A stretch of 64,000 nucleotides of DNA from positions 1 to 64,000 of the forward strand of contig JBBRLQ010000013.1 in assembly GCA_038231275.1 (NCBI GenBank), given 5' to 3'. The stretch is from Polyangiales bacterium. Its GTDB lineage: Bacteria; Myxococcota_A; Polyangia; Polyangiales; Polyangiaceae. The notes under the pieces were generated by a model. That model was not told the DNA's origin and did no database searches. It was given only the letters and a program-made list of their open reading frames with translations. Of this stretch, positions 9,960 through 32,140 are shown in pieces (the first letter of the stretch is position 1; the number at the start of each line of letters is the position of its first letter). The translations under genes were made by a program, and so were the position numbers.

Positions 9960-10057
<98 letters not shown>

Positions 10058-13166: not shown

Positions 13167-13217
13167 ACCGTTGAAACGACCTAGCGCGCGCTCCGATTCC
13201 GCCGCACCTCCCGACGG

Positions 13218-14030
13218 TCACCCCGCGACAGGAAGCGGCGTGACCTCGTCGCCGACGCGAACCTCACCGAGGGTCTCGGGGGCGAGGTTGATCGCGAACC
13301 ACACCGCCTCGTCCCACCTCCGGAACGTGGCGAGCGTGCGCAGCGGCTCCTTGCCGCCGGCGCCGGTCGTGGGATCGATCGTCGTCACCACGCAGCGGTC
13401 GCAGCCCTTCGGAACCCGGAACGTCGCGGCGCCCACCGACACGCGCGGCCACGCGTCCTCGGCGAACGGCTCGTCGCAGGCGACGACGATGTTCGGGCGA
13501 AAGCGGCTCATTCCGAGCTTCTGCCCGGCGCGGCGCTCGAGGTCGGCGAGCGAGCCCGTCGACGCGAGGAGGACCGGAAAGCCGTCCGCGAACGAGACGA
13601 TGTCACCCGGCGCGGCGTGGCTCGGCTTCACCGCGCGCTCGACGTCGTCGGGCATGTACACGAGCGTCGCGGCGCGGCCGAGGATGCGCGTCATCCATTT
13701 GCGCGCGGGCGGGTGCTCGATCGCCTCGACCTCGGTGTGCCAGACCTCGACGCGCCTCCGCGTGCCCGCGTCGATCGCGCGCGGGAGATCGAGCGTCTCG
13801 TCGCCGTATTCGAGGCGGAGGCGCGCGCCCTCGAGTGCCGTCCGAACCAGGCAGAGGCGCGGCTCGTCGCGCTGCGTGATGAAGAGGCCTTCGTCGTCGA
13901 CGACCATCCAGCGCCGATCGCCCGAGAAGCCTCGTCGCTCGACGCGCGCGGCGTCGACCGCGATGCCGGCGCACGCCTTCACCGGGTAGATGTGCAGCGA
14001 TTCGACGCGGATCACTGCGGCTCCGATCAC
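13218..14030 (-). CDS. MOSC domain protein (YcbX/mARC-like molybdoenzyme)
   Basis: LHIYPVKAC, GDRRWMVVD, SFADGFP, RFRPNIVV, EDAW, CDRCVVTTIDP and EPLRTLATFR; GTGA overlap with the upstream stop. Confidence 0.92.
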   Translation of the reverse strand: MIGAAVIRVESLHIYPVKACAGIAVDAARVERRGFSGDRRWMVVDDEGLFITQRDEPRLCLVRTALEGARLRLEYGDETLDLPRAIDAGTRRRVEVWHTEVEAIEHPPARKWMTRILGRAATLVYMPDDVERAVKPSHAAPGDIVSFADGFPVLLASTGSLADLERRAGQKLGMSRFRPNIVVACDEPFAEDAWPRVSVGAATFRVPKGCDRCVVTTIDPTTGAGGKEPLRTLATFRRWDEAVWFAINLAPETLGEVRVGDEVTPLPVAG

Positions 14031-14734: not shown

Positions 14735-14745
14735 GGCCGAGCAGT

Positions 14746-16059
14746 CTACTCCAGTCGGAGGCGCAGCACCGTGGGCTCGAAGAGCTTCTCGGGAGGCCAA
14801 ATTTTGCCGTCTTTGTCGAAGCTCCCCCACTGGCTGTCCGCCACGTAGACGAGGTCGTGGCCGACGACGACGCCGAGCGTGGGCTCGTGCATCTCGGCGT
14901 GGTTCCACTCGAGGACGCGCGACAGGGCGACGCGATCGCCCTCGACGGTGAGCTCGACGACGCGGTGTGGCTCGTACGCGTTCTGGATGGCGATGAGCTT
15001 TCCGTGGTGCGCGCGCAGGCCGTCGGTCCCGGCGAGGAGCAAGTCGTCGGGGGCGTCGAGCCAGCGCACGCGCCGTGTCGCGCGATCGACGCGCGCGAGG
15101 CCGCGGGTCCAGTCGGCCACGTAGAGCGCGTCGCCGATCGCGGCGATCCCTTGCGGCGATCGAAAGCCTTTGGGGACGAACGGCCCGAGCGGTCCTTTCC
15201 CTGGAGGCAGCGCGAGGAGATCGCCGGCCGCCGCGTCGCTCACGAGGACGGTCCCGTCGGCGTCGAGGAACAGATCGTTGCAGTTGTGAGGTCCTGGTCC
15301 GGACAGGGGATGGCGCTGGGTCACGCGCCCGGTCCCGAGATCGAGGGCGACCAGTACCGCCTTGCCCTCGTCCTCCTTCGCGTAGCCGCGCATCTCCGGC
15401 ACCGCGGAGGTGCACGCCCACAGGACCTTTCGAGCGGGATCGAGGGCGAGGCCGAGGACCGCGAGGAGGCCGTCCTCGGGGCTCGTGAAATCGAGGGCGA
15501 CCCCGCTCCGAGCGACGCGGACGATCTTGCGGCGATGCACGCTGCTGACGAAGAACGCACCCGTCGCCTCGTCGACCGCGATTCCCTCCGCGACGAAGTC
15601 CTTCTCGGAAAGCCGGAACGCCACGGCGCTCGCGTTCGTTCGCTTCTGGAGCAGCGCGTCGAGCTCGGCCTTCACCTGCGCGAAGTCCGGACGCGCGCGC
15701 AGGCTCGCGAAGTCGTCTTCGGCGGCGATGTCGAAATAGGCCTTTAGCCGGGAGAGCCGCGTCAGCGTGGCCACCGCCTCGTCGGCACGCCCACTCACGG
15801 CGTAGGCCGCGGCGAGAAAATACAGCCCGCGTGGGCGACCCGGCTGAATCCTCACGGCCCGCTCGGCCGACGCCACGAACGCAGGCTTGTCTCCCGCCTT
15901 GTACGCCGCCAGCGCGACGGTGAGCTCGTCGGTCGCGTCTCCAGGCTCGAACGCCGGCGTGATCACCGCGGACGGCGCGGCCGGACCGGGAGAAGGCGCG
16001 GGCGCGCAGGACGCCGCCATCATGACCGCCGCGCATGCGAGACATGTCGCGCGCATCAC
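14746..16059 (-). CDS. Lipoprotein with TPR-like N-terminus and SMP-30/gluconolactonase-type beta-propeller
   Basis: Signal peptide with Cys; AEGIAVD, LGLALD, NDLFLDADG, SPQGIA and GTDGL blade motifs. Confidence 0.7.
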   Translation of the reverse strand: MMRATCLACAAVMMAASCAPAPSPGPAAPSAVITPAFEPGDATDELTVALAAYKAGDKPAFVASAERAVRIQPGRPRGLYFLAAAYAVSGRADEAVATLTRLSRLKAYFDIAAEDDFASLRARPDFAQVKAELDALLQKRTNASAVAFRLSEKDFVAEGIAVDEATGAFFVSSVHRRKIVRVARSGVALDFTSPEDGLLAVLGLALDPARKVLWACTSAVPEMRGYAKEDEGKAVLVALDLGTGRVTQRHPLSGPGPHNCNDLFLDADGTVLVSDAAAGDLLALPPGKGPLGPFVPKGFRSPQGIAAIGDALYVADWTRGLARVDRATRRVRWLDAPDDLLLAGTDGLRAHHGKLIAIQNAYEPHRVVELTVEGDRVALSRVLEWNHAEMHEPTLGVVVGHDLVYVADSQWGSFDKDGKIWPPEKLFEPTVLRLRLE

Positions 16060-16592
16060 TTTCCCGCTTCGCGCTCGACGTAGACGCGAATCTTCGTGAC
16101 GCCGCCGACGCGTGGCAACGGATCGCCCGGGCGCGCGAGGCGGCCACCTTGCCCATGGTACGCAGGGAACGGCTCCTCGGGCGCGAGCAAGCTCGCGAAC
16201 AGCTCACCGCGCCGATTCACGATCAACGCCGGCACCGGATCCTTGTCGCCCGATGGCCGCCGCAAGAGGATCGTAATGTCCTTCTCGCCGGTCGCCGCGA
16301 TCACCGCGCCCTCGCGCGACGCCGCCGCGCCGAGGAGCGTCGTCATCTTCCACGCCCGGTGCTCGTCGTCCTTGAAGTCCGGCGGCACGGTCGCGAGCTT
16401 CGCGGCATCGATCGCCGGCGCCGGCGTGCCGTCGATCTCCACCGAGACCGTGGCCGCGGCGGCGGGCGCAGCGGTGGCGGGCGGCGGCGGCTTCGGCATT
16501 CGCTTTCCGTCGCTCGACTCGCTCGCCTTCGAGCACGACGCGCACGCCAGCGCGAGCGCGACGGTCGCTGCTACGGCCAGGATGGTCCTCAT
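16056..16592 (-). CDS. Hypothetical lipoprotein, possible Moco-binding (sulfite-oxidase-like) fold
   Basis: Lipobox CASC; ATGA-coupled to modC; pattern VEIDG...AWKMTTLLG...RVGGVTKIRV. Confidence 0.6.
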   Translation of the reverse strand: MRTILAVAATVALALACASCSKASESSDGKRMPKPPPPATAAPAAAATVSVEIDGTPAPAIDAAKLATVPPDFKDDEHRAWKMTTLLGAAASREGAVIAATGEKDITILLRRPSGDKDPVPALIVNRRGELFASLLAPEEPFPAYHGQGGRLARPGDPLPRVGGVTKIRVYVEREAGK

Positions 16593-17332
16593 CGTCCCCA
16601 CCTCTCCCCTTCGCGCGTCTCCGCGCTCGGCACGACCTCGTCGCCGTCCTCGCCCAGCACGTCCTTCACGGGGCCCTCTTTCGTCACGCGCCCTCCGTCG
16701 ATCAGTACGGCGCGATCGCCGAGCGCGCGAGCCTCTCCGCGGTGATGCGTGACATGGAGCATGGGCACGCCGAGCTCCGCCACGAACGAGCGGAGATCCC
16801 GCACGAGATCGTTCCGCAGCTCGCGATCCATCGCGCTGAAGGGCTCGTCGAAGAGGACCACTTTGGGGTTCGTCGCGAAGGCCCGAGCGAGCGCGACGCG
16901 CTGCGCCTCCCCGCCCGAGAAGGTTGCGGGGCGACGGTGCTCGAGGTGACCCACGCGCAGCCGCTCGAGCATCTTCTTCGCGCGCGCGGCCCGCTCGTCT
17001 TTGCTCGCACCGCGGTCCATCCCATAGGCGACGTTCGCCGCCGCCGTCATGTGCGGGAAGAGCGCGAGAGACTGGAAGACGAATGCCACGCGGCGGAGGT
17101 GCACCGGGCGATCGAGCTTCTTCTCTGCGTCGAACCACACGTCGTCGCCGAGCGCGATCTTCCCCCGCGACGGGCGTACGAGGCCGGAGATCGCTGCGAG
17201 CGTCGTGCTCTTGCCGGCACCGCTCGGCCCGAAGAGGATCGTGATCCCCGGCGCCGCCTCGAACCGCACGTCGAGGTGGAAGCCGCCTTGCTGCTCCACT
17301 TCGATCTTCACGGTGAGCGCGTCAGTGGGCAT
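16589..17332 (-). CDS. modC: Molybdate ABC transporter ATP-binding subunit (short form, no TOBE domain)
   Basis: GPSGAGKST, FSGGEAQRVALARA, LFDEPFS and HVTH; follows modB. Confidence 0.88.
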   Translation of the reverse strand: MPTDALTVKIEVEQQGGFHLDVRFEAAPGITILFGPSGAGKSTTLAAISGLVRPSRGKIALGDDVWFDAEKKLDRPVHLRRVAFVFQSLALFPHMTAAANVAYGMDRGASKDERAARAKKMLERLRVGHLEHRRPATFSGGEAQRVALARAFATNPKVVLFDEPFSAMDRELRNDLVRDLRSFVAELGVPMLHVTHHRGEARALGDRAVLIDGGRVTKEGPVKDVLGEDGDEVVPSAETREGERWGR

Positions 17333-17984
17333 CGCGCCTCGCGGTAAGGCGATTTACCGTGTAGAGTACACCTATCGCGACGGCCGTGAGGACGAGCACC
17401 ATACCGAGCGCCTCGGTCTCGCGGTGCGCTTGGATCGCGTCGTAGATCGCGAGCGACGCGGTCTGCGTCTCCCCCGGGATGTCGCCTGCGACCATGAGCG
17501 TCACGCCGAAGTCGCCGAGCGAGCGCGCGAACGCGAGCATGAGCGCCGCGACGATCCCGCGCGCGGCAAGCGGCAAGCGGATCGTGAAGAACGCGCGCGT
17601 CGGGCTCGCGCCGAGCGTCCGCGCCGCGCGCACGAGCAGGACGTCGACCCCCTCCAGCGCCGCGCGTCCCGACTTCACCACGATGGGGAGGGCCCCGACC
17701 GTCGCCGCGCAGATCGCCCCCGTCTTGGTGAACACGATCGACGAGCCGGTCAGCTGCTCGAACGCGTGCCCGATCATGCTACGCCGCCCGATCGCGACGA
17801 GGAGGTAGTACCCGAGCACCGTCGGCGGCAGCACCGTGGGCGCGGTCACGAGTGCATCGAGCAGATCCCGCCCCGGCAGCCGCTCCCGCGTGAGCAACGC
17901 CGCCAGCGCGACGCCTAGCACCCCCGCCACGACGATCGCCGCGCACGCGATCTGCAGCGACAGTACGAGCGGCGCCAGGTCCAT
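17322..17984 (-). CDS. modB: Molybdate ABC transporter permease
   Basis: VLPPTVLGYYLL, AARTLGA and FARSLGDFGVTLMVAGDIPGETQT. Confidence 0.93.
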   Translation of the reverse strand: MDLAPLVLSLQIACAAIVVAGVLGVALAALLTRERLPGRDLLDALVTAPTVLPPTVLGYYLLVAIGRRSMIGHAFEQLTGSSIVFTKTGAICAATVGALPIVVKSGRAALEGVDVLLVRAARTLGASPTRAFFTIRLPLAARGIVAALMLAFARSLGDFGVTLMVAGDIPGETQTASLAIYDAIQAHRETEALGMVLVLTAVAIGVLYTVNRLTARRDAH

Positions 17985-18003
17985 CCCGCCGCGAGTCTAC
18001 CCC

Positions 18004-18210
18004 TTATTTCGTCCGCCTCGCGCCAATGGCTGCGAGCAGCTTGTCCACGTCGATCTCGTCTTATTTCCGTCCGACCGCGCGCTTGTTCGTGATCAAATCC
18101 TCGGCGGAGAGGAGCGTCGCCTCGCCAGGTCCGCGCTTCACGGACCGTCACCGCCCCGTAGCGTTCGCGTGACGAAGGTGCGGGGCGAGGTCACACCTGA
18201 AATGGAACAC
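18004..18210 (-). pseudogene. Degraded remnant of a small nucleotidyltransferase-like gene
   Basis: Fragments SISGVT... and LLSAEDLITNKRAVGRK*DEIDVDKL (in-frame TAA at 18061-18063, further TGA upstream) resemble the C-terminal motif DLIxNKRAxGRxxDxxD of MNT/DUF6036-like proteins. Confidence 0.55.
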
Positions 18211-18241
18211 CAAGGCTCATCCTCGTGACGGCGCCACCCGC

Positions 18242-19039
18242 CTATTTCGCGCTCGCCGCCGCCGGTTCGCCCGGGAGCAAGAACCCGTAGCGACGCATCA
18301 CCGCGCGCCCGTCCTCCGAGCCGACGAACGCGACGAAGCGACGTGCACCCTCGCTCACGGCGGCGCCTTTTCCTTTGCACGCGACCAGGGCCTGATCGAT
18401 CCGTTCGTGCGCCTCCGCGGGGATCGTGGAGTAGGCGCCGCCCTCGGTCACAGTGGCGAGCGACAACGCCACGATCGCCACCTCAACGTTCCCCGACTGC
18501 GCGAACTGCAGCGTCTGTTGGACGTTCTCGCCGTACACGACGCGCGGCTGCACCTTGTCCCATACGCCGGCCCGCGTCATCGCGTCCTTCGCGGCGCGTC
18601 CGTACGGCGCATGCTCCGGGTTGGCGATCGCGATCTTCGCCCACTTGGCGTCCGCGAGATCGGCCACCGTCTTCGGCGGATCGATGCCCTTCTTCGACCA
18701 AAGCACGATCCGACCGGTCGCATACAGCGCCTTGCTGTCGGCCGCGCACGCGCCGCTCTTCACCGCGTCGTCGGCGAAGCTGACGTTGGCGGCCGCGAAG
18801 ACTTCGAACGGCGCCCCCTCGGCGATCTGCTTCGCGAGGAGGCCCGTCGATCCGAACGAGAACGTCACGGGTTGCCCGGTCTTCTTCGTGTACGCGTCGC
18901 CGACGTCCTTGAACGCGAACGCCAGATCGGCCGCCGCGGCGACCTTCAGCGGCGCTCCGCCCGCCGGCGGATCCTTCTTGCACGCGAGGGACGGCGCGAC
19001 GCCGAGCGCGAGCACGAAGAGGACGCCGGCGGCTCTCAT
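18242..19039 (-). CDS. modA: Molybdate ABC transporter substrate-binding lipoprotein
   Basis: Lipobox SLAC, VAAAADL, FGSTGLLAKQIAEGAP, IAIANPEHAPYG and GENVQQ. Confidence 0.93.
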   Translation of the reverse strand: MRAAGVLFVLALGVAPSLACKKDPPAGGAPLKVAAAADLAFAFKDVGDAYTKKTGQPVTFSFGSTGLLAKQIAEGAPFEVFAAANVSFADDAVKSGACAADSKALYATGRIVLWSKKGIDPPKTVADLADAKWAKIAIANPEHAPYGRAAKDAMTRAGVWDKVQPRVVYGENVQQTLQFAQSGNVEVAIVALSLATVTEGGAYSTIPAEAHERIDQALVACKGKGAAVSEGARRFVAFVGSEDGRAVMRRYGFLLPGEPAAASAK

Positions 19040-19043
19040 CGCG

Positions 19044-19856
19044 TCAGGCCTTGGTGATGAGCGTGCCGACGTCCTCGCCGGCGAGCGCGCGGGTGAGCAT
19101 GCCACGCTCGAGTCCGTTGACGATCTGCAGCTCGTGGCACGATCGCGCGCGCACGAGGTACTCGATGACGACGCGCTCGAGGATCATGTCGGGCAAGTCG
19201 GCCTTCAGGAGGTCGCTCGCGGTGATGCGCGGGATGTGCTTGGCCTTGGGGTTCTTCTTCGGATCGTCCTCGAAGAGGCCGGCCTCGTCCTTGACGAAGA
19301 TGGCGCGCTTGCAGCCGAGCACCTCGGCGCTCAAGAAGACGCCGGCGTCGGTGCGGTGCTGCGGGATGCGCCCGTTCTCGGTCGGCTTCTCCCAGTACCC
19401 GAACGGCGGCATGCCCGTCATGATCGGGATGCAGCCGAGTCGGAAGTAGAGCGGCAGCTTCTCGAAGTCGTCGTGCATGATGTAGATCCCGCCGTGCTTG
19501 GCGAGGAGCATCTGCAGCATGCGGGCGTTCTGGCGCGGGACGTACCCGCCGAGCGCCGCGAGAATGCCGGTGGGCAGCTCGAGATCACTGGCCATCGCGT
19601 AGATGTGCCGCGCGCGTGTTCCGCCGCCGCAGCAGAGGAGCAGCTTGTACATGTCCTTCGCGGCCGCGACCTCCTCGAGGATCGGGAAGAGCGCAGCGCG
19701 TCCGCGATCCATCACCGACTGACCGCCGATCTTGACGACCTTCACGTCGGGCATCATCGCGACGGCGTCGTACGTAAAGCCACCCTTCTCGCCGTCTCCC
19801 ACGCCGGTGAGCGGCGAGTCGGCGAACTGGCTCTCGATGCGCTTCCTCTCAAGCAT
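19044..19856 (-). CDS. mosB: Molybdenum storage protein (MoSto) beta-like subunit, amino-acid-kinase fold
   Basis: PDVKVVKIGGQSVMDRGRAA, GGGTRARHIY, GMPP, IPQHRTDAG, IFVKDEAGL and QIVNGL...LTRALAGEDVGT match remembered MoSto motifs; directly upstream of modA. Confidence 0.8.
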   Translation of the reverse strand: MLERKRIESQFADSPLTGVGDGEKGGFTYDAVAMMPDVKVVKIGGQSVMDRGRAALFPILEEVAAAKDMYKLLLCCGGGTRARHIYAMASDLELPTGILAALGGYVPRQNARMLQMLLAKHGGIYIMHDDFEKLPLYFRLGCIPIMTGMPPFGYWEKPTENGRIPQHRTDAGVFLSAEVLGCKRAIFVKDEAGLFEDDPKKNPKAKHIPRITASDLLKADLPDMILERVVIEYLVRARSCHELQIVNGLERGMLTRALAGEDVGTLITKA

Positions 19857-20691
19857 GGGTCATCTCCTTCTCGATGACCGTGCCGACGTCTTCGCCGGCC
19901 AGCGCTCGAGTGAGCTCACCTTGCTTGAGGCCGTTGATGATCTGCACCTTCTTTACGTGCCGCGCGGTCTTCCACGCCGTGAAGAGGAGGCGATCCAAGA
20001 TGAGCTCTTCCGGCATGTCGGTGAGGAGCTTCGCGAGCGTCGTCTTCTTGATCTGCTTGGCGTCCGAGTGCTTCTTCGGGTCCTTGGTGAAGAGACCGTC
20101 CTCGTCCTTCACGAAGATGATCTTCTGCATGCCGAGCACCTCGGCGTGGATGAAGAGACCGAAGTCCGAGCCGTGCGTGGGCATCGGGCCCTCTTCGGGC
20201 GGCGGCTCCCAGAAGTGGTAGGGCGGGACCGAGATGACGATCGGCATCATCCCGTTCTCGAGGTAGAGCGGCAGCTCCCAGAAGTGCTCGCGCTGCATGA
20301 CGATCGAGCCATGCTTGGCGAGGAGCGCGTTCAGGAAGACGGCGTTCGCCTCCTCCATCGCGCCGACCAGCTGCGCGACGCCGCCGGTGGGCAGACCCAG
20401 ATCGAGCGCGATCGAAATCGTGTGGCGCACGCGCGTCCCGCCGCCGACGCCGATGACCATCTGGTGCTTGCCGCGCGCCGCCGAGAGCTCGTCGGCGATC
20501 GGGAGCAGCGCGCCCTTGCCGCGGTCGAAGATCGAGTGCCCTCCGAGGCTGACGAGCGTGACGTCGGGCAAGATCGAGAACTCACGCTCCGAGTTCGTCT
20601 TGGCGATGACACGACGGTCGACGAGCGACTCGCGCATGAGAGAAGAGGAGATGTGGGTCCGGCCGTCGCCGGTGACGAGCTTGCTGGTCAT
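19849..20691 (-). CDS. mosA: Molybdenum storage protein (MoSto) alpha-like subunit
   Basis: N-terminal HISSSLMRESLVDR, GGGTRVRH, PPYHFW, IFVKDEDGL and ARHVKKVQIINGL; tandem paralog of the next gene. Alpha/beta assignment is tentative. Confidence 0.72.
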   Translation of the reverse strand: MTSKLVTGDGRTHISSSLMRESLVDRRVIAKTNSEREFSILPDVTLVSLGGHSIFDRGKGALLPIADELSAARGKHQMVIGVGGGTRVRHTISIALDLGLPTGGVAQLVGAMEEANAVFLNALLAKHGSIVMQREHFWELPLYLENGMMPIVISVPPYHFWEPPPEEGPMPTHGSDFGLFIHAEVLGMQKIIFVKDEDGLFTKDPKKHSDAKQIKKTTLAKLLTDMPEELILDRLLFTAWKTARHVKKVQIINGLKQGELTRALAGEDVGTVIEKEMTHA

Positions 20692-20716
20692 TGCTTATTT
20701 CTCGGGAGATCGTGCG

Positions 20717-21967
20717 TTACGAGTGTTCCTGCGCCGAGGCAGGATCGCCTGTTACAGTTTTGTTACTTTCGGGACGGCGAAACTCGGCGAGCGGCTTCAA
20801 GATCTGCCAGCTGACCGCGCCGGAGAGTACGCCGAAGAGCGTGTGGACCGTGAGCCCCGGGATCAGCATCGCCCACGCGACCGCCGGCGCCTGCACGCTG
20901 AGGGTCACGACGAAGATCGTCGCGAAGCGGCACGCGCCCATCAGGCCACCGACCCACGACCACGTGATCGGGCCGGGGAGCTTCCCGCCACGCGTGAGGA
21001 TCGGGACGAGCAGATCGCAGACGAGCCCGGGGGCGACGTGCTTGGCGATCTCGAAGATGCCGTAGCGCCCGTCGCCGAGGAGGAACGCGACCGTGCCCAT
21101 GACGAGGCCGGTCAGCGTCGCGCCGAAGCGCGATTTCGTCTTCACCGCAGCGACGATGTAGAGCGGCGTCAGGATGACGAGCTTGTGGCCCGGCGCGAAG
21201 GGGATGCTCGGGAGGATCTTGAGCGCTTTGATGCCGAGCATCGTGAGCGCCATGCCGGCGATGACCGCCACGTCGGCGGCCATGCGCTTTCCGCCCTCAC
21301 CCGCGGCGCCGAGATCGTGCCCCGCGAGGTGCTCCTCGGTCCGTGCGATCTGACGCTCCATCCGGCGGAGGATCGGCGCGACGTCACCGCGCCCGAGGCG
21401 TTTCACGGACGCCCAGAACCCTTCGTGCGGCTCTCCATCGGCATTGCGTCCGCCGCCGCCACCGCCGCCACCGCCGCCACCACCACCGCCGCCGCCTCCA
21501 CCGCCACCACGCCCTCGGCCGCTCGTCCCCATCAGCGCGAGGACGGCGTCGATCGACGCGGCGACGATCTTCGGAACGCCGAGCTTGCCCATCCCCGCGG
21601 CGATCGCGCGCTCGTCGCCGGCGCGCGCCACCTGCGACGCGAGGACGACGCAGAGGACGCGCAGGACCATCAGCCCGCCCAGGATCGCGCCGGCGACGTT
21701 GAGACTCACCGTCCATCCGCCGAGGTGCACCGGCACCCAGCGATCGATCGCCGGATCCTCGGACGTGAGCGCGTACGAGAGGCCGATGAACGCTGCGAAG
21801 CCCCAGAGCTTCGTCACCTGACGCACGAGCCGCCTCGGCGGCAGGCGCACGATCAGCCACAAAATAGCCTGGCTCGCCGCGAGCGCGCCGAGCTGCCACG
21901 GCTGCCGCAGGAAGAAGACCCCGATGGCCACCCCGACCAGGTAGAGAACGCGCAGGCGGGGGTCCAT
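20717..21967 (-). CDS. Membrane protein: EcfT/CbiQ-like N-terminal half, poly-Gly linker, ECF S-component-like C-terminal half
   Basis: Starts MDPRLR; LGGLMVLRVL...AIAAGMGKLGVP is an EcfT-like pattern; Gly20; then a multi-TM domain with PGH and FGATLTGLVMG...GLVCDLL, like S components. Confidence 0.65.
   Translation of the reverse strand: MDPRLRVLYLVGVAIGVFFLRQPWQLGALAASQAILWLIVRLPPRRLVRQVTKLWGFAAFIGLSYALTSEDPAIDRWVPVHLGGWTVSLNVAGAILGGLMVLRVLCVVLASQVARAGDERAIAAGMGKLGVPKIVAASIDAVLALMGTSGRGRGGGGGGGGGGGGGGGGGGGGRNADGEPHEGFWASVKRLGRGDVAPILRRMERQIARTEEHLAGHDLGAAGEGGKRMAADVAVIAGMALTMLGIKALKILPSIPFAPGHKLVILTPLYIVAAVKTKSRFGATLTGLVMGTVAFLLGDGRYGIFEIAKHVAPGLVCDLLVPILTRGGKLPGPITWSWVGGLMGACRFATIFVVTLSVQAPAVAWAMLIPGLTVHTLFGVLSGAVSWQILKPLAEFRRPESNKTVTGDPASAQEHS
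20750..20766 (-). promoter_or_regulatory. Pho-box-like direct repeat upstream of mosA
   Basis: Minus strand GTAACA-AAACT-GTAACA (11-bp period), inside the 3' end of the upstream gene. Confidence 0.6.
21449..21508 (-). repeat. Poly-glycine tract (20 GGN codons)
   Basis: Mixed GGC/GGT/GGA codons counted directly. Confidence 0.9.
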
Positions 21968-22002
21968 CGAAGAAGCCTACCACCCCAGCCGGCGGCCGAA
22001 GC

Positions 22003-22500
22003 TTAGGGGGTCCCGGCTTCTTGCTCCGCCTTCGTCTTCAGCGGCGGGCACACGCTCCTCAGGATCTTCTGGTTCACGGGCGGGAGCGACCGGAGGTACT
22101 TCACGATGGAGTACGTCTCGAAGTCGTTCATCGTCGAGAAGTGCTTCATCTGCGGGCAGAGCTCGAGCCCGCCGAGATCGACTCCCGTACGGATCGCGAG
22201 CGCAAGCTGGTCGTCGGTCCACGCGGCGACGCCGTAGGTGGGATCAGGCGTGAGGTTCGGCGGGTAGAGCTCCACGGTCGGATCCTGCGGGTAAGCGATC
22301 GCCGCCACGGCGCCCGCCATGTTCTGCCCGTGGCACTTCACGCAGTCGCGCGTGACGACGGACGCCTTGCCCTGCTCGAGCGTCGCCTGGTCCTTGCCGG
22401 TGGGCGTTCCTCCGTCCCCGCTGTCGCCGCTCTTGCTGCTGCTGCACGCCGCGAGGACGCCTACCGCACCCGTCGCGAAAAGCCAAAGCCACCGTCGCAT
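22003..22500 (-). CDS. Monoheme cytochrome c lipoprotein
   Basis: Lipobox LAAC, CVKCH, YPPNLTPD, WTDDQLALAIRTG, PQM and YLRSLPPV. Confidence 0.85.
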   Translation of the reverse strand: MRRWLWLFATGAVGVLAACSSSKSGDSGDGGTPTGKDQATLEQGKASVVTRDCVKCHGQNMAGAVAAIAYPQDPTVELYPPNLTPDPTYGVAAWTDDQLALAIRTGVDLGGLELCPQMKHFSTMNDFETYSIVKYLRSLPPVNQKILRSVCPPLKTKAEQEAGTP

Positions 22501-22544
22501 ACGCTCACTCCTCTTGGATCGGATCGTCCTCACGAAAATGAGAA

Positions 22545-22575
22545 CGGCCCCGCTCTCTCGTGGAGAGCAGGGCCG
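22545..22575 (-). terminator. Intrinsic terminator candidate after 22609-23595
   Basis: Hairpin CGGCCC-CGCTCTC / GAGAGC-AGGGCCG, followed on the minus strand by TTCTCATTTT. Confidence 0.65.
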
Positions 22576-22608
22576 AGCTCTATGCCTTGTAGCCGTGACT
22601 CGTTCTAA

Positions 22609-23595
22609 TCACTGACCGCATGTCTTGGCATTGTACTTCGTGATGATGTCCTGCGCGAACGCGTCGATCGCAGTCGCCATCGTCGGAGTGATGGTGAACA
22701 TCGGGTGCGAGTAGGGCGCACCCGTCGAGGTCGCGGTGGACTTGTCCTTCAGCGCAGCCGACGCGACGAGCGAGGTGCCGTTCGTGCCGATGTACTTGCT
22801 GATGATGTTGATGCCCTCGGGCGAGAGCGCGTTGTCCTGGAGCGCCTTCAGCGTCGGCGTGCCGATCGCGCTGAAATTCGCGTGCATCGCGTACTCGCCC
22901 TGCGTGTGGCAGGTCTGGCACGGAGCCTGGTTGCAGCCGGTGCAGGTGTTGGCGTTCTCGTTGGTGCGCCGGATCGTGCGCAGCTTGTCGAGGCCGATCG
23001 CCTGGAACTTCGTGGTGTCGATGCAGGTGCCGAGCTTGGCCAGGATGCTCGTCGGCGTGTTCACGCCGCGAACCTGGGCCTCCATCGCCAGCCACGTGTT
23101 CATGTCGCCGGTCTCCTGCGCGGTGAGCGCGGGGCCCGTGTGCTGTCCCTTTCGGAGGAGCATCGACGTCGTCATGATGTAGCCGCGCGCCTCGACGGAC
23201 GCGTAGGCGGTGACGGCGTCGGCGTTCCAGAAGGTCGGCGCGCCGGACGCGCCGGGCGGCGCGTGGCAGCTGGCGCACGTCGTGGTCAGCTCGGGGAACA
23301 CGGTCTTGACGAAGTATTCCTTCGCGGTCGGCGACGTCACGCCGGGCGGGGGAACATCGGGCGGAGTGACGACGCCGCCGGAGCTCGTCGTCCCGGGGAT
23401 GGTGCCGCCGCTGGAGGTGCCACCGCTGGTGCTGCCGCCGCTCGTGGAGCCGCCGCTGCTGGTGCCACCGGAGCTGCTGCCGCCGCCGCCGGGATCATTC
23501 TGGCCGAGCGTATTCGGGTCGGTGCTTCCGCACGCCAGCGCAGTTGCACCGGCGAGCGCCGCGACCAGTGCGAAGGCGTACGGCTTCATGTTCAC
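22609..23595 (-). CDS. Di-heme c-type cytochrome lipoprotein with Gly/Ser linker
   Basis: Lipobox ALAC, (TSSGG)n linker, CASCH and CTGCNQAPCQTCH. Confidence 0.75.
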   Translation of the reverse strand: MNMKPYAFALVAALAGATALACGSTDPNTLGQNDPGGGGSSSGGTSSGGSTSGGSTSGGTSSGGTIPGTTSSGGVVTPPDVPPPGVTSPTAKEYFVKTVFPELTTTCASCHAPPGASGAPTFWNADAVTAYASVEARGYIMTTSMLLRKGQHTGPALTAQETGDMNTWLAMEAQVRGVNTPTSILAKLGTCIDTTKFQAIGLDKLRTIRRTNENANTCTGCNQAPCQTCHTQGEYAMHANFSAIGTPTLKALQDNALSPEGINIISKYIGTNGTSLVASAALKDKSTATSTGAPYSHPMFTITPTMATAIDAFAQDIITKYNAKTCGQ

Positions 23596-25553
23596 TTCTC
23601 CCCTTGCTTGCGGCGGAGGGCCAGGAGCATTCCGAGTCCGACGAGGAAGAGGCCGCCTGCGCCGCCGGTGCTGGTTCCGGTCGTGGAGACCGCGCAGCCC
23701 GAGTTCGCGCCGTCGAGGCCGTTGTGGAACGCGCCGCTGTTCGGATCCGGGCTGTCACCGCCGGGGATGACGCTGGGCGGGGGCTCGGCGTTCGGGCTGG
23801 GGTTGGTGCCGGGGACGTTCACGCGCGGGAGCGGGCCGGTGACGCTGGGCTGTCCGTCGGGGCCGACGCCGGGCGTTCCGGTCGGGCCGCCGGGGATGGT
23901 CGGCGTGCTGGGGATCCACGACGCGGGGACGAGCGAGAGGTAGATGCTCTCGCGCGCGGCGAGCTTCGCGGTGTCGGCGCTGGTGTAGCCCTGGACCGCC
24001 GACCCGATGAGCGTCTTCACTTCCGGCATGAACGCCGTGGCGCCCTTGTTGTAGCCCGGGTTCTGGATGCCGCCCTGGGCGTAGATGAAGCCGCGGCCCT
24101 GGTTGTTCGGGTTGCGCTTGCCGCGGACGACGGTGCCGGCGATGTCACTGTAGGTTGACGTGGCGTAGAGCTTGAGCGGGTCCTTTGTGCCGATGACGTT
24201 GTTCACGCTGTCGAGCGGCAGAATCTGGACGAAGCCCTTGCCCGTACCGGTCGACGAGGCGCCCATCGAGACGACGACCGGCATCTCGCTGCCTTCCGGG
24301 CCCCACGTCGCGCCGATGGCGCCGGCGTGACGCGCGTACGGCGCCACGTTCGACATCATCGGGCCAACAGGCGCGAGGGTCGTCTTGTCGAACATCGCGA
24401 GGTTCGACTCGTTGATGCCGCCGGTGTGGCCGTTGTTGCCGTTGCCGGGGCCGCCGCGGACCGCCGCGCTCGTCTGGTAGCTGACGGCGATGTACTTTCC
24501 GAGGTCGGCGATGTTCGGCTGCACCGCGTACTTGTTGTTCTTCGGGTCGCTCTTGGCGATGAGCGCGGTCTTGATGACCTTGCCGGTCGTGACATCGAAG
24601 GAGAGGAGGCGGACACCGACATTGGCCGGCTGCGTGTTCGCCTCGACGCTGGTGAGGTACGCCGTCTTGCCGTCGGCCGAGTTGGTGACGACGTCGGGGC
24701 GACAGTGCTGCGCGTTCTGGATGACGCGGTTCAGGTATTTGACGTCGAGCTTGACGCCGCCGCCCGCCGCGTCCTCGATCACGTCGGTGCGGAGGACGTA
24801 CGCGTTGTTGTTGTTGCGCTGCACGCCCATGACGAACGCATTGTCGGTGCCCTGAACGCGGGCGATCGAGTGCGCGCCGTACTGTTGGTTGTCGTTGTTG
24901 CCCGAGAGCTCGATGAGGTTGGTCGGCTTGAGGAGGCTGTTGCTCCGGTTCGTGTTGGTGACCTTGACCGGCTTCATCGTCGCCTTGTCGTAGACGAACG
25001 CGACGATCTGCGGGTTGTTGTTCTGGCCGTTGTCCTCGCTCGCGCCGACGAGCAAGTAGTACTTGTTCGTCGCCATGATGTTCGGCTTGGCGAACGTGCG
25101 GTCGCCCTCGAGCTCGGGGAGCTCGACGTACTGCATCGCGTCGACCTGCGGGCCCTGCGTCGTGAGGTGCGTGACCGCGAACGCCGCCTGCATGTAGCTG
25201 TTGTTGCTGTTCGGGTTGACCGTGTTGGCCGTCCGCGTCGCGATGAAGAGGAGGGGGACGTCCGTGGCAAAGCTGGTCGCCGCCGTCGGGCTGTCGTCGA
25301 CCTTCAGCTGGGGATCCATGAAGCCGACGCCGGTGCAGCGGCCGACGCGCGGGACCTTGTTGCCGGCCGCGTCGGTCTTGGTCGGGCCGAGGAGGTCACC
25401 GATCATCTTCGGCAGGATCTGGTGGTACGTGTTGAGCACCACCGTGCCGCCCGTCTGCCCGCCGGCCTGGGGAACGTCCGCCTTCGCGCTCGCCGTTGCA
25501 CCAACGATCGCGAGAGTCGAGAGAGCCACTGTGCAGATACGGGACGTCTTCAT
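23592..25553 (-). CDS. Secreted surface protein with MYXO-CTERM-like C-terminal sorting signal
   Basis: Signal peptide, Asn-rich beta-type body, Pro/Gly linker and SGCAV...GGLFLVGLGMLLALRRK tail. Confidence 0.75.
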   Translation of the reverse strand: MKTSRICTVALSTLAIVGATASAKADVPQAGGQTGGTVVLNTYHQILPKMIGDLLGPTKTDAAGNKVPRVGRCTGVGFMDPQLKVDDSPTAATSFATDVPLLFIATRTANTVNPNSNNSYMQAAFAVTHLTTQGPQVDAMQYVELPELEGDRTFAKPNIMATNKYYLLVGASEDNGQNNNPQIVAFVYDKATMKPVKVTNTNRSNSLLKPTNLIELSGNNDNQQYGAHSIARVQGTDNAFVMGVQRNNNNAYVLRTDVIEDAAGGGVKLDVKYLNRVIQNAQHCRPDVVTNSADGKTAYLTSVEANTQPANVGVRLLSFDVTTGKVIKTALIAKSDPKNNKYAVQPNIADLGKYIAVSYQTSAAVRGGPGNGNNGHTGGINESNLAMFDKTTLAPVGPMMSNVAPYARHAGAIGATWGPEGSEMPVVVSMGASSTGTGKGFVQILPLDSVNNVIGTKDPLKLYATSTYSDIAGTVVRGKRNPNNQGRGFIYAQGGIQNPGYNKGATAFMPEVKTLIGSAVQGYTSADTAKLAARESIYLSLVPASWIPSTPTIPGGPTGTPGVGPDGQPSVTGPLPRVNVPGTNPSPNAEPPPSVIPGGDSPDPNSGAFHNGLDGANSGCAVSTTGTSTGGAGGLFLVGLGMLLALRRKQGEK

Positions 25554-25607
25554 TTTGAATGCCTCCGAGCGAACGGTTCGGTGCGAGCAGCCTCGCAAGC
25601 CACCTAG

Positions 25608-26708
25608 CTATCGCTTGTTTTCCTGGTCGTCGTTGCGCGCGTCGTCGTTTGCGGCGAGCTGCGCGCTGAGATTGGTCATGTCCGAGATCGCGACGAGCTC
25701 ACGGCTCATCGGGGTCGTGTGCTTGTAAACGTGCACGCTGGTGACGAGCGCGTCCTTGTCGACGCCCCCGTCGGCCTGCATCGACGCGGGGACACGCACC
25801 AGAACCTTGCCGTGCTGGTGCTTGCCCAAGGTGAAAAAGATCTCGTCCGAAACTTTTGCCCACTTCATCGCGTCGGCGCGGCCGACGACCTCGTCGCCGC
25901 TCACGAGCTCGACGGAGGTGGCGCCCGCGGTGTCGGCGCCGAGCGCCGTCGCGAGCTTGGCGAGGGAGAGCTTGGCGTCGCCGTCGGCGGTGGCGCCCAT
26001 CGCGATGCCGTCGCTCACGAGCTTGCGCTTCACGACGCCGGCGAGCTTGCCGTCGACGTAGAGGCGCGTGCCCTTTGCGGCGTCGACCGTGGCGTAGGGG
26101 ATCGCGTCCGAGCAGTCGCCGTCGGCGCCGACGATGCACTGCTTGCCCTTGGCGATCTTCGGCGCGTCCTTGCCGACGAAGACCTCGAACTTACGGATCT
26201 CGTGGACGATGAAGAGGTTCTTCAGGCCCGTCGTGTCCCACGCCGCCTCGGCGCCGCCGGTGATGCCCGCGCTGAAGCGAACCACGAAGCGGTCCTGCTC
26301 CTTCGTGAGCTCCTTGCCGTCGACGCTGCCGATGCGGCTCGTGTTGTCCCAGACGTAGATCGACTTGACGGTCTCGGGGGCGACGCCGATGGCCTTGAGG
26401 TACTCGGCGAGGCGGAACGCGGGCGCCTCGTCGGAGCCGATGTTCGCGATGCCGGGCATGTCGCCGTACCGGAGGACGCCCTTCTGGACGCCGTCGACGT
26501 AGACGGGGAGGTCGAGGCCCTTGAGCTTGCGGCTGCCGTGCATGTCGGCCGGGACGCCGCCCGCCCCTGCCATCGCCGGGTCCTCGACCTTGGCCTGGAC
26601 CGGCGCTGCCGCCTTCGTGGCCGGCTCGGCGTTCTTCTTGGAGCAGCCCGTCGCGACGATGGCCGTCGTGGCTGCAAAGAAGATCCAGCTGAGGAGGGAG
26701 CCGCGCAT
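25608..26708 (-). CDS. Lipoprotein with two internally repeated domains
   Basis: Lipobox ATGC; repeats VYVDG...FRLAEYLKAIG...IRKFEVF and LYVDG...LSLAKLATALG...VTSVHVY. Confidence 0.7.
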   Translation of the reverse strand: MRGSLLSWIFFAATTAIVATGCSKKNAEPATKAAAPVQAKVEDPAMAGAGGVPADMHGSRKLKGLDLPVYVDGVQKGVLRYGDMPGIANIGSDEAPAFRLAEYLKAIGVAPETVKSIYVWDNTSRIGSVDGKELTKEQDRFVVRFSAGITGGAEAAWDTTGLKNLFIVHEIRKFEVFVGKDAPKIAKGKQCIVGADGDCSDAIPYATVDAAKGTRLYVDGKLAGVVKRKLVSDGIAMGATADGDAKLSLAKLATALGADTAGATSVELVSGDEVVGRADAMKWAKVSDEIFFTLGKHQHGKVLVRVPASMQADGGVDKDALVTSVHVYKHTTPMSRELVAISDMTNLSAQLAANDDARNDDQENKR

Positions 26709-26822
26709 GCAGACCCTCAGTGCACCCCGTGTGCCGAACACTGCCGCTGGATTTTCCGCGCCCCACCGCACGCAAGTGCTTGGAGTCCGCACCCCAGCGG
26801 ACGAAAAGCCGCTATCCCCCGC

Positions 26823-26839
26823 GGTTACCTGGTTGTTAC
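26823..26839 (-). promoter_or_regulatory. Pho-box-like direct repeat upstream of the 26708-22609 operon
   Basis: Minus strand GTAACA-ACCAG-GTAACC (11-bp period). Confidence 0.6.
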
Positions 26840-27056
26840 ACGCGATCCAGGGGTGACTTCGTCGCTACCCGGGGCGGTTGGAGGGCGATGTAGGTTGGAT
26901 CCCCCGGTGACCACCCAAAACCCCCGAAATCTGCCCCGACTGGACAGGCGACCTGCCAGATCCGCCTGGCACCCGGACAAACTGCTGCCAACAGCCATCA
27001 CCCCCTGGATCGGCAACTTGCTGCCTGTGCCCATCAATGGGCATACAATTCACGGA

Positions 27057-27743: not shown

Positions 27744-27753
27744 TCGTCCGCCG

Positions 27754-28242: not shown

Positions 28243-28277
28243 GGGAATGAGTGTGGCCCGATTCTCCGCAGATCCGC

Positions 28278-28302
28278 GGTTACACTATTGTCACACGGGT
28301 GA
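28278..28302 (-). promoter_or_regulatory. Pho-box-like motif, near-identical to 47502-47526
   Basis: Minus strand TCACCCGTGTGACAATAGTGTAACC, ending 35 nt upstream of ATG 28242. Confidence 0.75.
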
Positions 28303-29445
28303 TTTGTCCGTGTCGGTGTCGGTCGGCGGATGTGACCTGCGCGCGCGGCGGCGGAGCGCGTAGAGAAAGACGAGCGCGGCGGCGGCCATCGCGACACCGA
28401 ACCACCACGCGCGCGAGGCAGGCGGGGCGCTCGCGGCGCGGGCGAACTGCGGGGCGACGTACGAAGCGGTGTCGAGGCCTGCGAGGCTGGGCGTCGGGCG
28501 ACCGGACGGAAAGAAGAGCAGCGACGTCGCGAAGCCGGCGGCGGAGACCTCGGGCGTCGCAGGGATCGCCGGCGCGTAGAGATCGACGATCGTGCGCACG
28601 TGACGAGGATCGAGCGCGGGCAGCTCGCGCCCGAGCGCGGCGGCGGACGCGGCTTGATCTTGATGAATCAGGCGCTCTGCTCGCGCGATCGCGCGCGCCA
28701 TTGCCGCCGCGGTCGCCGGGCTCGCCTCCGCGAACGCGCGCGTGAAGACGAGCGCGTGGATTTGACGCTCGGCGAGAACCGGCACCTCGCCGCCGGAGAT
28801 GTTGACGAGGAGCCGCGCGCCTTGCTCGACGAGCGCCTTCTCGACGTACGGCGTGTGCGCGAAGAGGACATCGACCTCGCCGCGCCCGAACGCGCCATTC
28901 TGATCCTTGCCGTGGATGATGTGAACGTCGACGTCGCGATCCGCGTCGAGGCCATACGCCGCATACATCGCGCGGAGGCGCGCGGGCGGGTGCGGCGCGA
29001 TGCCGAGCTTGAGGCCCTTGAGCGCGAGGAGACGCTCGCGCACCGGGACGTCGCGCGTGAGCTTGCGCTCGTCCCACACGCGCCCGCTCACGACGACGTT
29101 GATGGGATCGTTCTTGAGGAGGTTGCAGACCAGGACGAGCGGCACCTTGGCGCCGATGAGCTCGAGGTAGACCGGCGGCGGGAGCACTGCGACGTTGGCC
29201 TCGCCGCGCTCGAAGTAGATGCGCGTCTCTTGCGGAGACGGCGGCACGACGAGCGTGACATCGACGCCCTCCTCGGCGAAAAATCCGGCCCCCTTCGCGA
29301 GCCAGAACGCCATGTATTGCAGGTTGTCGGCGTCGGGGAGGAGGACCTTCACGTCGCGGCTCGCGGCGCGCGACGAGGGCGCGACGGTGATCCCGACGAG
29401 CATAGCGACGAGCGCGAGGGCCAGCGCGACGATCCGGCGCGTCAC
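28291..29445 (-). CDS. NMT1/SsuA-family ABC substrate-binding protein with C-terminal TM anchor
   Basis: Signal peptide, WLAKGAGFFAEEGVDVTL, LKGLKLG and AFGRGEVD; hydrophobic C-terminal helix followed by RRRARR. Confidence 0.8.
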   Translation of the reverse strand: MTRRIVALALALVAMLVGITVAPSSRAASRDVKVLLPDADNLQYMAFWLAKGAGFFAEEGVDVTLVVPPSPQETRIYFERGEANVAVLPPPVYLELIGAKVPLVLVCNLLKNDPINVVVSGRVWDERKLTRDVPVRERLLALKGLKLGIAPHPPARLRAMYAAYGLDADRDVDVHIIHGKDQNGAFGRGEVDVLFAHTPYVEKALVEQGARLLVNISGGEVPVLAERQIHALVFTRAFAEASPATAAAMARAIARAERLIHQDQAASAAALGRELPALDPRHVRTIVDLYAPAIPATPEVSAAGFATSLLFFPSGRPTPSLAGLDTASYVAPQFARAASAPPASRAWWFGVAMAAAALVFLYALRRRARRSHPPTDTDTDKSPV

Positions 29446-31676: not shown

Positions 31677-32140
31677 GGGGCCTTGCAGACGCCCTGCGGG
31701 TTGCAGCCGCCCGACGGCGGCGGACACTCCGTCGGCTGCGTGCAGTGACGCGTGCAGTGCGGGCCCTTCGAGGGGAAGTTGAAGCAGAGGTTCGTGTCGC
31801 ATTGCGCGTCCGTGTCGCACGGGGACATGAACGGGAGGAGCGCGGCGGCCTCCGCTGCAGGCCCATCGGGCGCGGGGCCGTCGACCGCGGACGCCTCGCC
31901 GCCACTGCCGCCGCCGTCAGAGACACCAGGGACGGCGCCGCTGCAGTCGCACGCGCCGTAGGTCTGGCCGTCGCTCGTGCACTGCTGGAAGCCGTGCGGC
32001 GCGCCGGGACAAGCGCATGCGCGGTAGTCCTGAGGATAGCAGGGCCTGCCGTCGTCGGTACACGCCGAGGCGAGCGCGACGACGACGACGACCGCGACGA
32101 GCGCGGCGAGGACCCGGGTGCCGAGCTTCACGAGGCTCAT
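31673..32140 (-). CDS. Cys-rich lipoprotein upstream of the TBDR
   Basis: Lipobox ASAC and two Cys clusters; the start may be GTG 32131. Confidence 0.7.
   Translation of the reverse strand: MSLVKLGTRVLAALVAVVVVVALASACTDDGRPCYPQDYRACACPGAPHGFQQCTSDGQTYGACDCSGAVPGVSDGGGSGGEASAVDGPAPDGPAAEAAALLPFMSPCDTDAQCDTNLCFNFPSKGPHCTRHCTQPTECPPPSGGCNPQGVCKAP

Follow-up and report, generated by a model that had tools for sequence, protein, structure and literature searches.

Organization of the locus

The DNA analyzed here is a stretch of 64,000 nucleotides from a Polyangiales bacterium, a myxobacterium of soil (assembly GCA_038231275.1, contig JBBRLQ010000013.1, positions 1 to 64,000), referred to as a whole as the window. 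It carries a gene cluster in which two genes for proteins of the molybdenum storage protein (MoSto) family, mos1 and mos2, directly follow the gene for a membrane protein, E, whose predicted structure recalls parts of energy-coupling factor (ECF) transporters. As the window has a GC content of ~70%, genes were called by third-position GC periodicity in combination with the rule GC1>GC2, followed by listing of the open reading frames (ORFs) and family searches. GC periodicity and ORFs delimited a single co-oriented run on the minus strand, extending from gene A to gene K at 16056-26708. An initial annotation, made from the sequence alone, had described this run, and our gene calls and family searches agreed with its positions. 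In the direction of reading, the run comprises:

A, 25608..26708, minus strand: lipoprotein of two tandem domains, no Pfam family, with a predicted PruR/SUOX-like fold
B, 23592..25553, minus strand: surface protein with a MYXO-CTERM sorting signal and a body outside known families
C, 22609..23595, minus strand: di-heme c-type cytochrome lipoprotein with two CXXCH motifs
Terminator-like hairpin, 22545..22575, minus strand: located between C and D; 13-bp stem and T-rich tail
D, 22003..22533, minus strand: monoheme cytochrome c lipoprotein (Pfam Cytochrom_C), opening the second transcription unit
E, 20717..21967, minus strand: polytopic membrane protein with an EcfT-like N-terminal part, a Gly/Arg linker, cytoplasmic helices, and a six-helix ECF-S-like domain
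Imperfect (CCG/CCA)n repeat, 21450..21508, minus strand: encodes the poly-Gly linker of E (Tandem Repeats Finder)
F (Mos1), 19849..20691, minus strand: MoSto-family subunit with a conserved N-terminal arm, in the alpha position
G (Mos2), 19044..19856, minus strand: MoSto-family subunit, equivalent of beta
modA, 18242..19039, minus strand: molybdate-binding lipoprotein (TIGR01256)
modB, 17322..17984, minus strand: permease (TIGR02141)
modC, 16589..17332, minus strand: ATP-binding cassette (ABC) ATPase without the C-terminal regulatory domain (TIGR02142)
K, 16056..16592, minus strand: small lipoprotein-like protein with a signal peptide and a Cys

The terminator proposed earlier at 22545-22575 was recovered. 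The hairpin, read from 22575 to 22545, has 10 GC pairs in its 13-bp stem as well as a T tail, and is the strongest of 14 terminator sites in the region 13000-32000. From D to the gene following K, successive genes either overlap or are spaced by 4-35 nt, except that modA and modB are separated by 257 nt. Based on the terminator and this spacing, we concluded that A, B, and C form one unit and that D and the genes behind it form another. Since a sigma-70 scan detected no promoter-like site inside the run, with a consensus that may not fit Myxococcota, the internal promoters that had also been postulated could not be substantiated; the two sites found between 13000 and 32000 (0.9 expected) are both located near 28900-29280. 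The arrangement recurs in related genomes, indicating that the gene run is not due to chance.

Involvement of the locus in molybdenum metabolism, as previously suggested, is well supported by bona fide modA and modB genes, a ModC-like ATPase, and the MoSto-family proteins. ModA and ModB scored 189 bits against TIGR01256 (cutoff 62.5) and 211.1 bits against TIGR02141 (cutoff 182.6), respectively. ModC, a protein of 247 residues, scored 220.9 bits against TIGR02142 and matched positions 7-222 of the 353 in the model; it stayed below the cutoff of 285 because the C-terminal third of the model is absent. In other ModC proteins this C-terminal domain mediates molybdate-dependent regulation. None of the 49 window ORFs scanned matched a nitrogenase or molybdenum cofactor (Moco) biosynthesis family, which confirms the reported absence of nif genes from the window, and an Rfam search near the locus yielded neither a Moco riboswitch nor any other family.

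E is encoded next to a MoSto-like pair in nearly all loci

One genome per species was scanned with an alignment of E, which resulted in 178 pattern matches and 138 confirmed relatives; the best 80 of these were kept as loci. Gene content was determined by tblastn using all window proteins, and the denominators given are the loci with enough flanking sequence. According to the record labels, the 80 loci comprise 62 from Myxococcota, 8 from 'delta proteobacterium', 5 from Pseudomonadota (2 of them Usitatibacter), 3 from Eremiobacterota, and one each from Acidobacteriota and Gemmatimonadota. Labels of short contigs from metagenome-assembled genomes may be wrong; one of the Eremiobacterota loci lies on a chromosome record of 3.27 Mb.

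In 76 of 79 loci, mos1 was located on the same strand within 400 bp downstream of E. The exceptions were L021, with a 2.1-kb insert, and L065 and L075, in which no mos gene was present. Tandem mos1 and mos2 genes occurred in 67/71 loci, the remainder being L030 (frameshifted), L061 (fragment only), and again L065 and L075. The latter two, both labeled 'delta proteobacterium', retain genes resembling A and B; no other locus clearly departs from the trio. Loci of Eremiobacterota and Usitatibacter contained the E-mos1-mos2 trio only. Among the other genes, modA was present in 37/66 loci and the complete set of modA, modB, and modC in 27/57. Where modA is present, the ORF listing usually has it start 16-22 nt before the end of mos2. 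Upstream of E, A was found in 40/56, B in 41/63, and C in 41/69 loci, and D was directly upstream in 18/71.

In several cases E and Mos1 are joined in frame. Both form one ORF in L031 (669 residues) and in L035, and in L030 the junction between them is in frame, the frameshift lying further inside mos1. Additional fusions were identified in P0272-P0275 (658-665 residues), P0134 (732 residues), P0277 (730 residues, 53% identical to E over the full length of E and continuing into Mos1), and P0281 (767 residues, with an S-like part 40% identical to that of E). Such fusions occur in Eremiobacterota and in several metagenome proteins, and they indicate that the C-terminus of E is cytoplasmic and abuts the N-terminal arm of Mos1.

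EcfT proteins work with EcfA/A' ABC ATPases, which are usually co-encoded. No EcfA-type ATPase is encoded in the 64-kb window, where modC is the sole gene for an ABC ATPase. Across the 80 loci, 37 gave an ABC ATPase match, and the best match was mostly a modC homologue (40-86% identical) downstream of mos2. Weak extra or sole matches were obtained in 5 loci, weak extra ones (25-31% identity) in 3, and no EcfA-like gene was recognized in the loci, although ATPases of this type may be encoded elsewhere in the genomes. The initial annotation had regarded E as a second importer. The link to the MoSto-like pair in 76/79 loci, the in-frame fusions, and the absence of EcfA from the window argue against an independent cofactor importer. 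Rather, judged by these genomic patterns, E looks like a membrane protein that is obligately paired with, and dedicated to, a separate lineage of MoSto-like proteins. The mean column identities of 78% for Mos1 (31 loci) and 82% for Mos2, compared to 54% for E and 27-33% for A to C, fit a tightly constrained machine.

These data also bear on the simplest explanation, according to which the genes for an ordinary soluble MoSto and ModABC happen to neighbor membrane and surface genes of no related function. Classical MoSto is a soluble protein that functions on its own (PMC6448029), and around the MoSto pairs on Azospirillum plasmids no homologues of E, modA, modB, or modC were found within 6 kb. 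However, the adjacency in 76/79 loci across several phyla (by record labels) and the recurrent in-frame fusions render a chance neighborhood highly improbable.

Apart from the window genes, a protein of ~340 residues without a family ('cluster 6') was noted in 20 loci (L043, L044, L064, L069, L073, L080, and 14 others), where its gene often directly follows mos2 or precedes modB. In L043 and L044 the protein is 30-34% identical to ModA by tblastn; a weak match to TusA (E 7e-4) was below the cutoff.

Mos1 and Mos2 belong to a distinct MoSto-like lineage

Both F and G have the AA_kinase fold (Pfam, E 1.5e-16 and 1.7e-20, respectively). Searches against the PDB matched F to MosB with an E of 1.7e-63 and to MosA with 1.4e-43 (216 vs 152 bits), and G to MosB with 7.5e-69 (235 bits, vs 146 bits for MosA). 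The next solved family after MoSto was UMP kinase (E 1e-7). Residues 33-269 of G align without gaps to residues 33-269 of MosB (E 7.7e-69), about half of them being identical. Met149 of G aligns with M149 of 2ogx_B and is invariant in 31 sequences; Met149 of the beta subunit is said to be the molybdate passage proposed by Brunle et al. in 2019. F and G share 48% identity, and their genes overlap by 8 nt. The N-terminal arm of Mos1 is rich in invariant residues (D9, G10, R11, H13, S16, L18, M19, E21, S22, and L23).

The MoSto-like family is small, with 78 representatives at E<=1e-30 among 1.84 billion proteins. In two quick trees, anchored by PDB searches of P0135 and P0166 and by annotated Azospirillum plasmid genes, sequences of the Mos1 and Mos2 types formed separate clades with support of 100 and 97-99 in the SH-like approximate likelihood ratio test (SH-aLRT). 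The MosA representative P0166 (473 bits to 2ogx_A) and the annotated Azospirillum pair fell outside both clades; P0166, on a long branch under midpoint rooting, grouped with classical beta-like sequences apart from Mos1. The branching order among the clades is tentative, as the trees were midpoint rooted after a short search with SH-aLRT as the only support, the second tree was built without five rows on long branches, and the MosA branch is long. The two genes had initially been named mosA and mosB. A one-alpha/one-beta orthology was not observed: both proteins score higher against MosB than against MosA, and the MosA representative is set apart from Mos1.

On a plasmid of Azospirillum sp. 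B510 (L081, 5902-6714) and on seven other Azospirillum plasmids, a MosB-like gene is annotated as 'uridine (monophosphate) kinase', and its neighbor is labeled 'molybdenum storage protein subunit alpha'. The kinase label is probably a misannotation.

The kinase fold would also allow for a different function, in which the pair acts as a small-molecule kinase that phosphorylates a substrate entering via the S-like domain of E (group translocation) and in which the likeness to MoSto is ancestral. In line with this, weak NCBIfam matches derive the family from UMP and isopentenyl-phosphate kinases, Mos1 has other residues in place of two of the three classical cluster ligands, and half of the loci lack modABC. 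In contrast, F and G score 216-235 bits against MoSto but at most 34 bits against any kinase, the gapless and about half-identical alignment of G to MosB includes the conserved Met149, and many loci show coupling of modA to mos2. We therefore consider a kinase function of this kind improbable.

E combines an EcfT-like part with an S-like domain

From its N-terminus, E consists of a CbiQ/EcfT-like part, the Gly/Arg linker, amphipathic helices, and a highly conserved domain of six helices. Against CbiQ (Pfam cutoff 25), the whole protein scored 23.6 bits and the N-terminal fragment 28.0 bits, and the match extends over model positions 9-139 of 216 only (~60%). The score against TIGR02454 was 37.3 bits (cutoff 111.8). 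For the six-helix domain no Pfam family was found, and among the known S families the sole match by sequence was Trep_Strep with an E of 0.58. A PDB sequence search with E returned artificial Gly-linker constructs only.

An AF2 model of E, built from 30 homologues, had a mean predicted local distance difference test (pLDDT) score of 85.6 and a predicted template modeling (TM) score of 0.83. In a fold search against the PDB, the matches with a probability of at least 0.85 (0.85-0.98) were exclusively S components of ECF transporters and EcfT chains. The S components were 5edl (probability 0.98, target-normalized TM score [TMt] 0.51), 4rfs_S (0.92, 0.52), and 4tkr (0.85, 0.51); the EcfT chains were 6zg3_D, 7nnt_D, and 7nnu_D (TM 0.44-0.49). 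Thus, of the claim that E is a fusion of EcfT and S, the 28.0-bit CbiQ fragment and the ECF fold matches stand, while membership of either family was not established. As a description of the modeled structure, family membership aside, the term is fair.

A total of 314 homologues of E were found, among them P0021, for which Pendulispora albinea is given as the source. In the S-like domain, the charged or polar residues K250, K262, R280, D299, Y302, E306, K309, H310, D318, R347, and H375 are invariant. So many residues of this type, in or between helices, are more than a passive anchor would need. Inspection by eye further identified a nearly invariant 'ARAGD' at 114-118 and a 'GRGD' at 192-195 of which G194 and D195 are invariant; coupling helices of EcfT carry Ala-Arg-Gly motifs. 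The linker contains a run of 23 glycines encoded by the imperfect CCG/CCA repeat (period 3, 18.7 copies), and pLDDT falls below 50 at residues 152-175. Homologues of E differ widely in the length of this linker and in its content of Gly and Arg. Because the linker varies and is encoded by a triplet repeat, repeat slippage may tune its length.

Short stand-alone matches to the S-like domain were also obtained (173), most of them from short contigs, and these do not show split genes; no Pfam domains were found in 120 listed short S-like homologues.

The properties of E raise the possibility that E and Mos1/Mos2 together constitute a primary transporter, in which the MoSto-like ATPase replaces the EcfA/A' motor and molybdate is moved across the membrane independently of ModABC and perhaps delivered directly into the cage. 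The T-like part with its nearly invariant 'ARAGD', the lack of EcfA, and the natural E-Mos1 fusions are compatible with such a pump. Moreover, the S-like domain has invariant Lys, Arg, and His residues, and in roughly half of the loci, among them the three from Eremiobacterota, the trio occurs with no modABC; both observations speak for this reading. However, modABC, where present, is translationally coupled to mos2, suggesting that ModABC does the importing. In addition, the T and S parts are only weakly supported by the fold matches, and no ATPase of the amino-acid-kinase fold is known to drive a transporter. On these grounds a primary transporter appears rather unlikely. A related and likewise rather unlikely reading is that the locus encodes a new class of primary-active oxyanion pump, in which an ECF-type T/S module would be energized by a MoSto-like 'molybdate kinase' in place of ABC ATPases. 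Molybdate would be taken over from the membrane module and driven into a protein cage, so that one machine would combine transport and storage, and the N-terminal arm of Mos1 would connect it mechanically to the membrane part.

Accessory proteins A to D

The AF2 model of lipoprotein A (pLDDT 84.2) had its best Foldseek match with PruR 7kom (probability 1.00, TMt 0.55, root-mean-square deviation 7.0, E 0.012). Among the 12 best matches, PruR was also represented by 7kp2, 7kos, and 7kou, with the sulfite dehydrogenase SorA and SoxC/SoxCD ranking lower. A is therefore predicted from its model to adopt a PruR/SUOX-like pterin-binding fold. In a feature-based atlas, the molybdopterin-oxidoreductase (Oxidored_molyb) cluster was the sole family lead, with a score of 0.84 that is below the level of more than a lead. 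None of 37 family members matched Oxidored_molyb (PF00174) at E up to 10, and a PDB profile search produced no PruR or SUOX chain and nothing significant. A contains no conserved Cys apart from that of the lipobox, and no DcpA-type partner adjoins it.

B matched TIGR03901 at residues 618-648 (24.2 bits, cutoff 20), and the 40 homologues listed retain the tail rich in Cys, hydrophobic residues, and Arg. Its body had no relative in the PDB or Pfam, and for this part the atlas gave beta-propeller-type families as leads, all below 0.9. Pfam scans of the family members of A and B gave nothing consistent. In C, the heme motifs CASCH (107-111) and CQTCH (226-230) are both kept in 38/39 homologues, the exception being a fragment of 127 residues; C107, C110, H111, C226, C229, and H230 are invariant in the alignment (A5), and a PDB profile search yielded nothing significant. 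D matched Pfam Cytochrom_C with 27.9 bits (cutoff 21.3, E 5.9e-6).

Linkage to E was consistent for mos1; A, B, and C each occur in 59-71% of the loci with enough flank, were not found by tblastn in Eremiobacterota or Usitatibacter loci, and are separated from E by the terminator. We propose that A, B, C, and cytochrome D are accessories that act in the periplasm or at the cell surface and are restricted to certain lineages.

The accessory genes also figure in the interpretation offered initially, namely that E is a self-standing ECF-type importer of an organic molybdenum or tungsten species (Moco, molybdopterin, or another pterin), with capture by A to C and storage by MoSto. PruR has a degenerate form of the sulfite-oxidase fold and is a periplasmic binder of pterins, with pterin-stacking Tyr/Trp and Asn residues and a Pro-Trp motif (PMC11194511). 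Of the pterin idea, the predicted fold of A and the presence of a TonB-dependent receptor upstream were retained, whereas no sequence relation was found (0/37 for Oxidored_molyb); the modeled fold of A is a lead and the one result that speaks for pterin. The ECF T/S-like fold of E would suit an importer as well. On the other hand, no EcfA/A' is encoded in the window and none was recognized in the loci, and the invariant partner of E is the MoSto-like pair rather than A to C. The terminator, the missing A, B, and C in Eremiobacterota and Usitatibacter, and the lack of conserved Cys in A beyond the lipobox also argue against this explanation. Finally, storage of an organic species does not agree with MoSto, which stores an inorganic polyoxometalate, polyoxomolybdate, and not Moco (PMC6448029, PMC4504029). 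Taken together, import of an organic cofactor by E seems quite unlikely.

Genes surrounding the run

The following genes flank the run:

TonB-dependent outer-membrane receptor, 29442..31679, minus strand: upstream of the run (Pfam Plug, E 1.9e-21; TonB_dep_Rec_b-barrel, E 1.3e-33)
TPR/beta-propeller-like gene, 14746-16059: downstream of K
DUF4412 gene, 14027-14734: between the MOSC gene and the TPR/beta-propeller-like gene
MOSC enzyme, 13218..14012, minus strand: MOSC_N, E 4.2e-28; MOSC, E 1.6e-20

TonB-dependent receptors were also found upstream in 19 + 4 related loci. The MOSC gene is indeed present downstream, as annotated initially, but two genes separate it from K. Apart from the two closest loci, L001 and L002, no locus contained it, and it does not belong to the conserved module. 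No Pfam or NCBIfam family was found for K, homologues of which clustered in 9 loci.

Between the TonB-dependent receptor and A, an ORF at 28291-29440 encodes a protein of 383 residues with hydrophobic segments at both termini and no family, and another at 27754-28242 encodes a small lipoprotein consisting largely of GTS repeats, which are encoded by a 9/27/54-bp tandem repeat at 27962-28121. Past the receptor, a multiheme c-type cytochrome is encoded at 33303-34940 on the plus strand (Cytochrome_C554; an MtrC/MtrF-like domain was below its cutoff). The region around the locus is rich in exported redox proteins. An ORF of 1123 residues at 48824-52192 contains TonB_C, Plug, and a TonB-dependent receptor barrel, and represents either an unusual fusion or two genes merged by the ORF call. 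About 6 kb from the locus, the window contains a selenocysteine cluster with selB (5388-7262), selA (7278-8684), and tRNA-Sec (9965-10057, 66.3 bits). Selenocysteine is typical of Mo/W formate dehydrogenases; no gene for such an enzyme was seen in the window.

A proposed membrane-docked molybdate store

Our best reading is that the locus is an island for the acquisition and hoarding of molybdate with E, Mos1, and Mos2 as its conserved core. On balance, these three proteins probably constitute a membrane-docked, ATP-driven complex that sequesters molybdate or tungstate and is fed by ModABC. In this model, E, Mos1, and Mos2 would assemble at the inner face of the cytoplasmic membrane into a single complex, in which the Mos1/Mos2 oligomer would use ATP at the beta-like site of Mos2 and drive molybdate (or tungstate) into a protein-enclosed store, filled as in MoSto of A. 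vinelandii. The cytoplasmic C-terminus of E, abutting the N-terminal arm of Mos1, would hold the machine at the membrane, and E would probably also pass on or gate the anion. ModABC, whose genes show translational coupling to mos2 in roughly half of the genomes, would supply the molybdate. We infer a physical complex, molybdate as its ligand, storage rather than transport, and any role that A to D may have.

Several points weigh against such a complex. Mutual binding of E, Mos1, and Mos2 and the binding of molybdenum are deduced from sequence. The 80 loci were picked by similarity to E, so that the census runs from E to mos, and in L065 and L075 E is present but a mos gene was not found within 10 kb downstream. 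Nearby modABC genes are missing from about half of the loci. The ECF-like fold calls for E are weak (Foldseek E 0.29-1.1, TM ~0.5 when target-normalized). A further point concerns the cluster ligands, which we take to belong to the alpha subunit of MoSto and to include His140 on the threefold axis. By a mapping deduced via P0166 with an offset of one residue, Glu129 corresponds to Gln133, His140 to Tyr143, and His156 to His159 of Mos1, and only His156 is kept. Covalent ligation of the MoSto cluster by Glu129 and His156 has been described (PMC4504029). As two classical ligands are replaced, the stored species may differ from that of A. vinelandii, or the function may be other than storage.

A literature search of limited coverage identified no paper that ties an energy-coupling factor to molybdenum storage or the molybdenum storage protein to Myxococcota, and the E-mos1-mos2 module is undescribed in the papers found. 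In one preprint, mosAB is no more than an entry listed for a Nitrotoga genome, and a 2019 study presents MoSto as having no known homologues (PMC6448029). MoSto has so far been treated as a soluble curiosity of Azotobacter. The distinct MoSto-like lineage described here occurs in at least 78 species-level genomes, mostly of non-diazotrophic soil Myxococcota, and nearly always (76/79) adjoins a dedicated membrane protein of the ECF T/S type, to which it is sometimes fused. If the trio is one complex, bacteria can couple the storage of a metal directly to the membrane and can combine membrane modules of the ECF type with an ATPase that is not of the ABC type, and the trio would provide a tractable system for the hoarding of a scarce trace metal for non-nitrogenase enzymes. 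The PruR-like model of lipoprotein A hints at roles of exported SUOX-fold proteins beyond c-di-GMP signaling.

Comparison with known systems

Lipoprotein A resembles PruR of Agrobacterium (7KOU, 7KOM, 7KP2) in its predicted fold, for which four PruR entries were among the 12 best matches. Both are exported and lack a Mo-binding Cys (PMC11194511). Unlike PruR, A has two tandem domains, is lipid-anchored, shows no sequence similarity, and has no adjoining DcpA-type partner.

The likeness of E to ECF transporters (PDB 4RFS, 6ZG3, 7NNU, 5EDL) resides in its N-terminus, which matches CbiQ 9-139, and in its six-helix domain, whose best fold matches are solved S components (TMt ~0.51, E 0.29-1.1). 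E differs from these transporters in joining the T and S parts in one chain via the Gly/Arg linker. Its T part covers ~60% of the model, and its S part belongs to no known S family by sequence. Moreover, no EcfA/A' is encoded in the window, and the genetic partner of E is an ATPase of the amino-acid-kinase fold.

The ModABC importer encoded here resembles known ones in that ModA and ModB pass the NCBIfam equivalog cutoffs. It differs in that ModC lacks the C-terminal domain and in the translational coupling of its operon to a gene for storage.

The closest relative of the storage part is MoSto of A. vinelandii (MosA/MosB; PDB 2OGX, 4F6T, 6GU5), which binds polyoxomolybdate or polyoxotungstate in an ATP-dependent manner. 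Both systems have the amino-acid-kinase fold, tandem paralogous subunits, and a link to molybdate, which is provided here by the adjacent modABC. In contrast to MosA and MosB, F and G are both closer to MosB than to MosA and form clades of their own, and the equivalents of Glu129 and His140 are replaced in Mos1. No nif genes accompany the system in the window, its hosts are mostly Myxococcota, and the membrane partner E is nearly always adjacent and sometimes fused.

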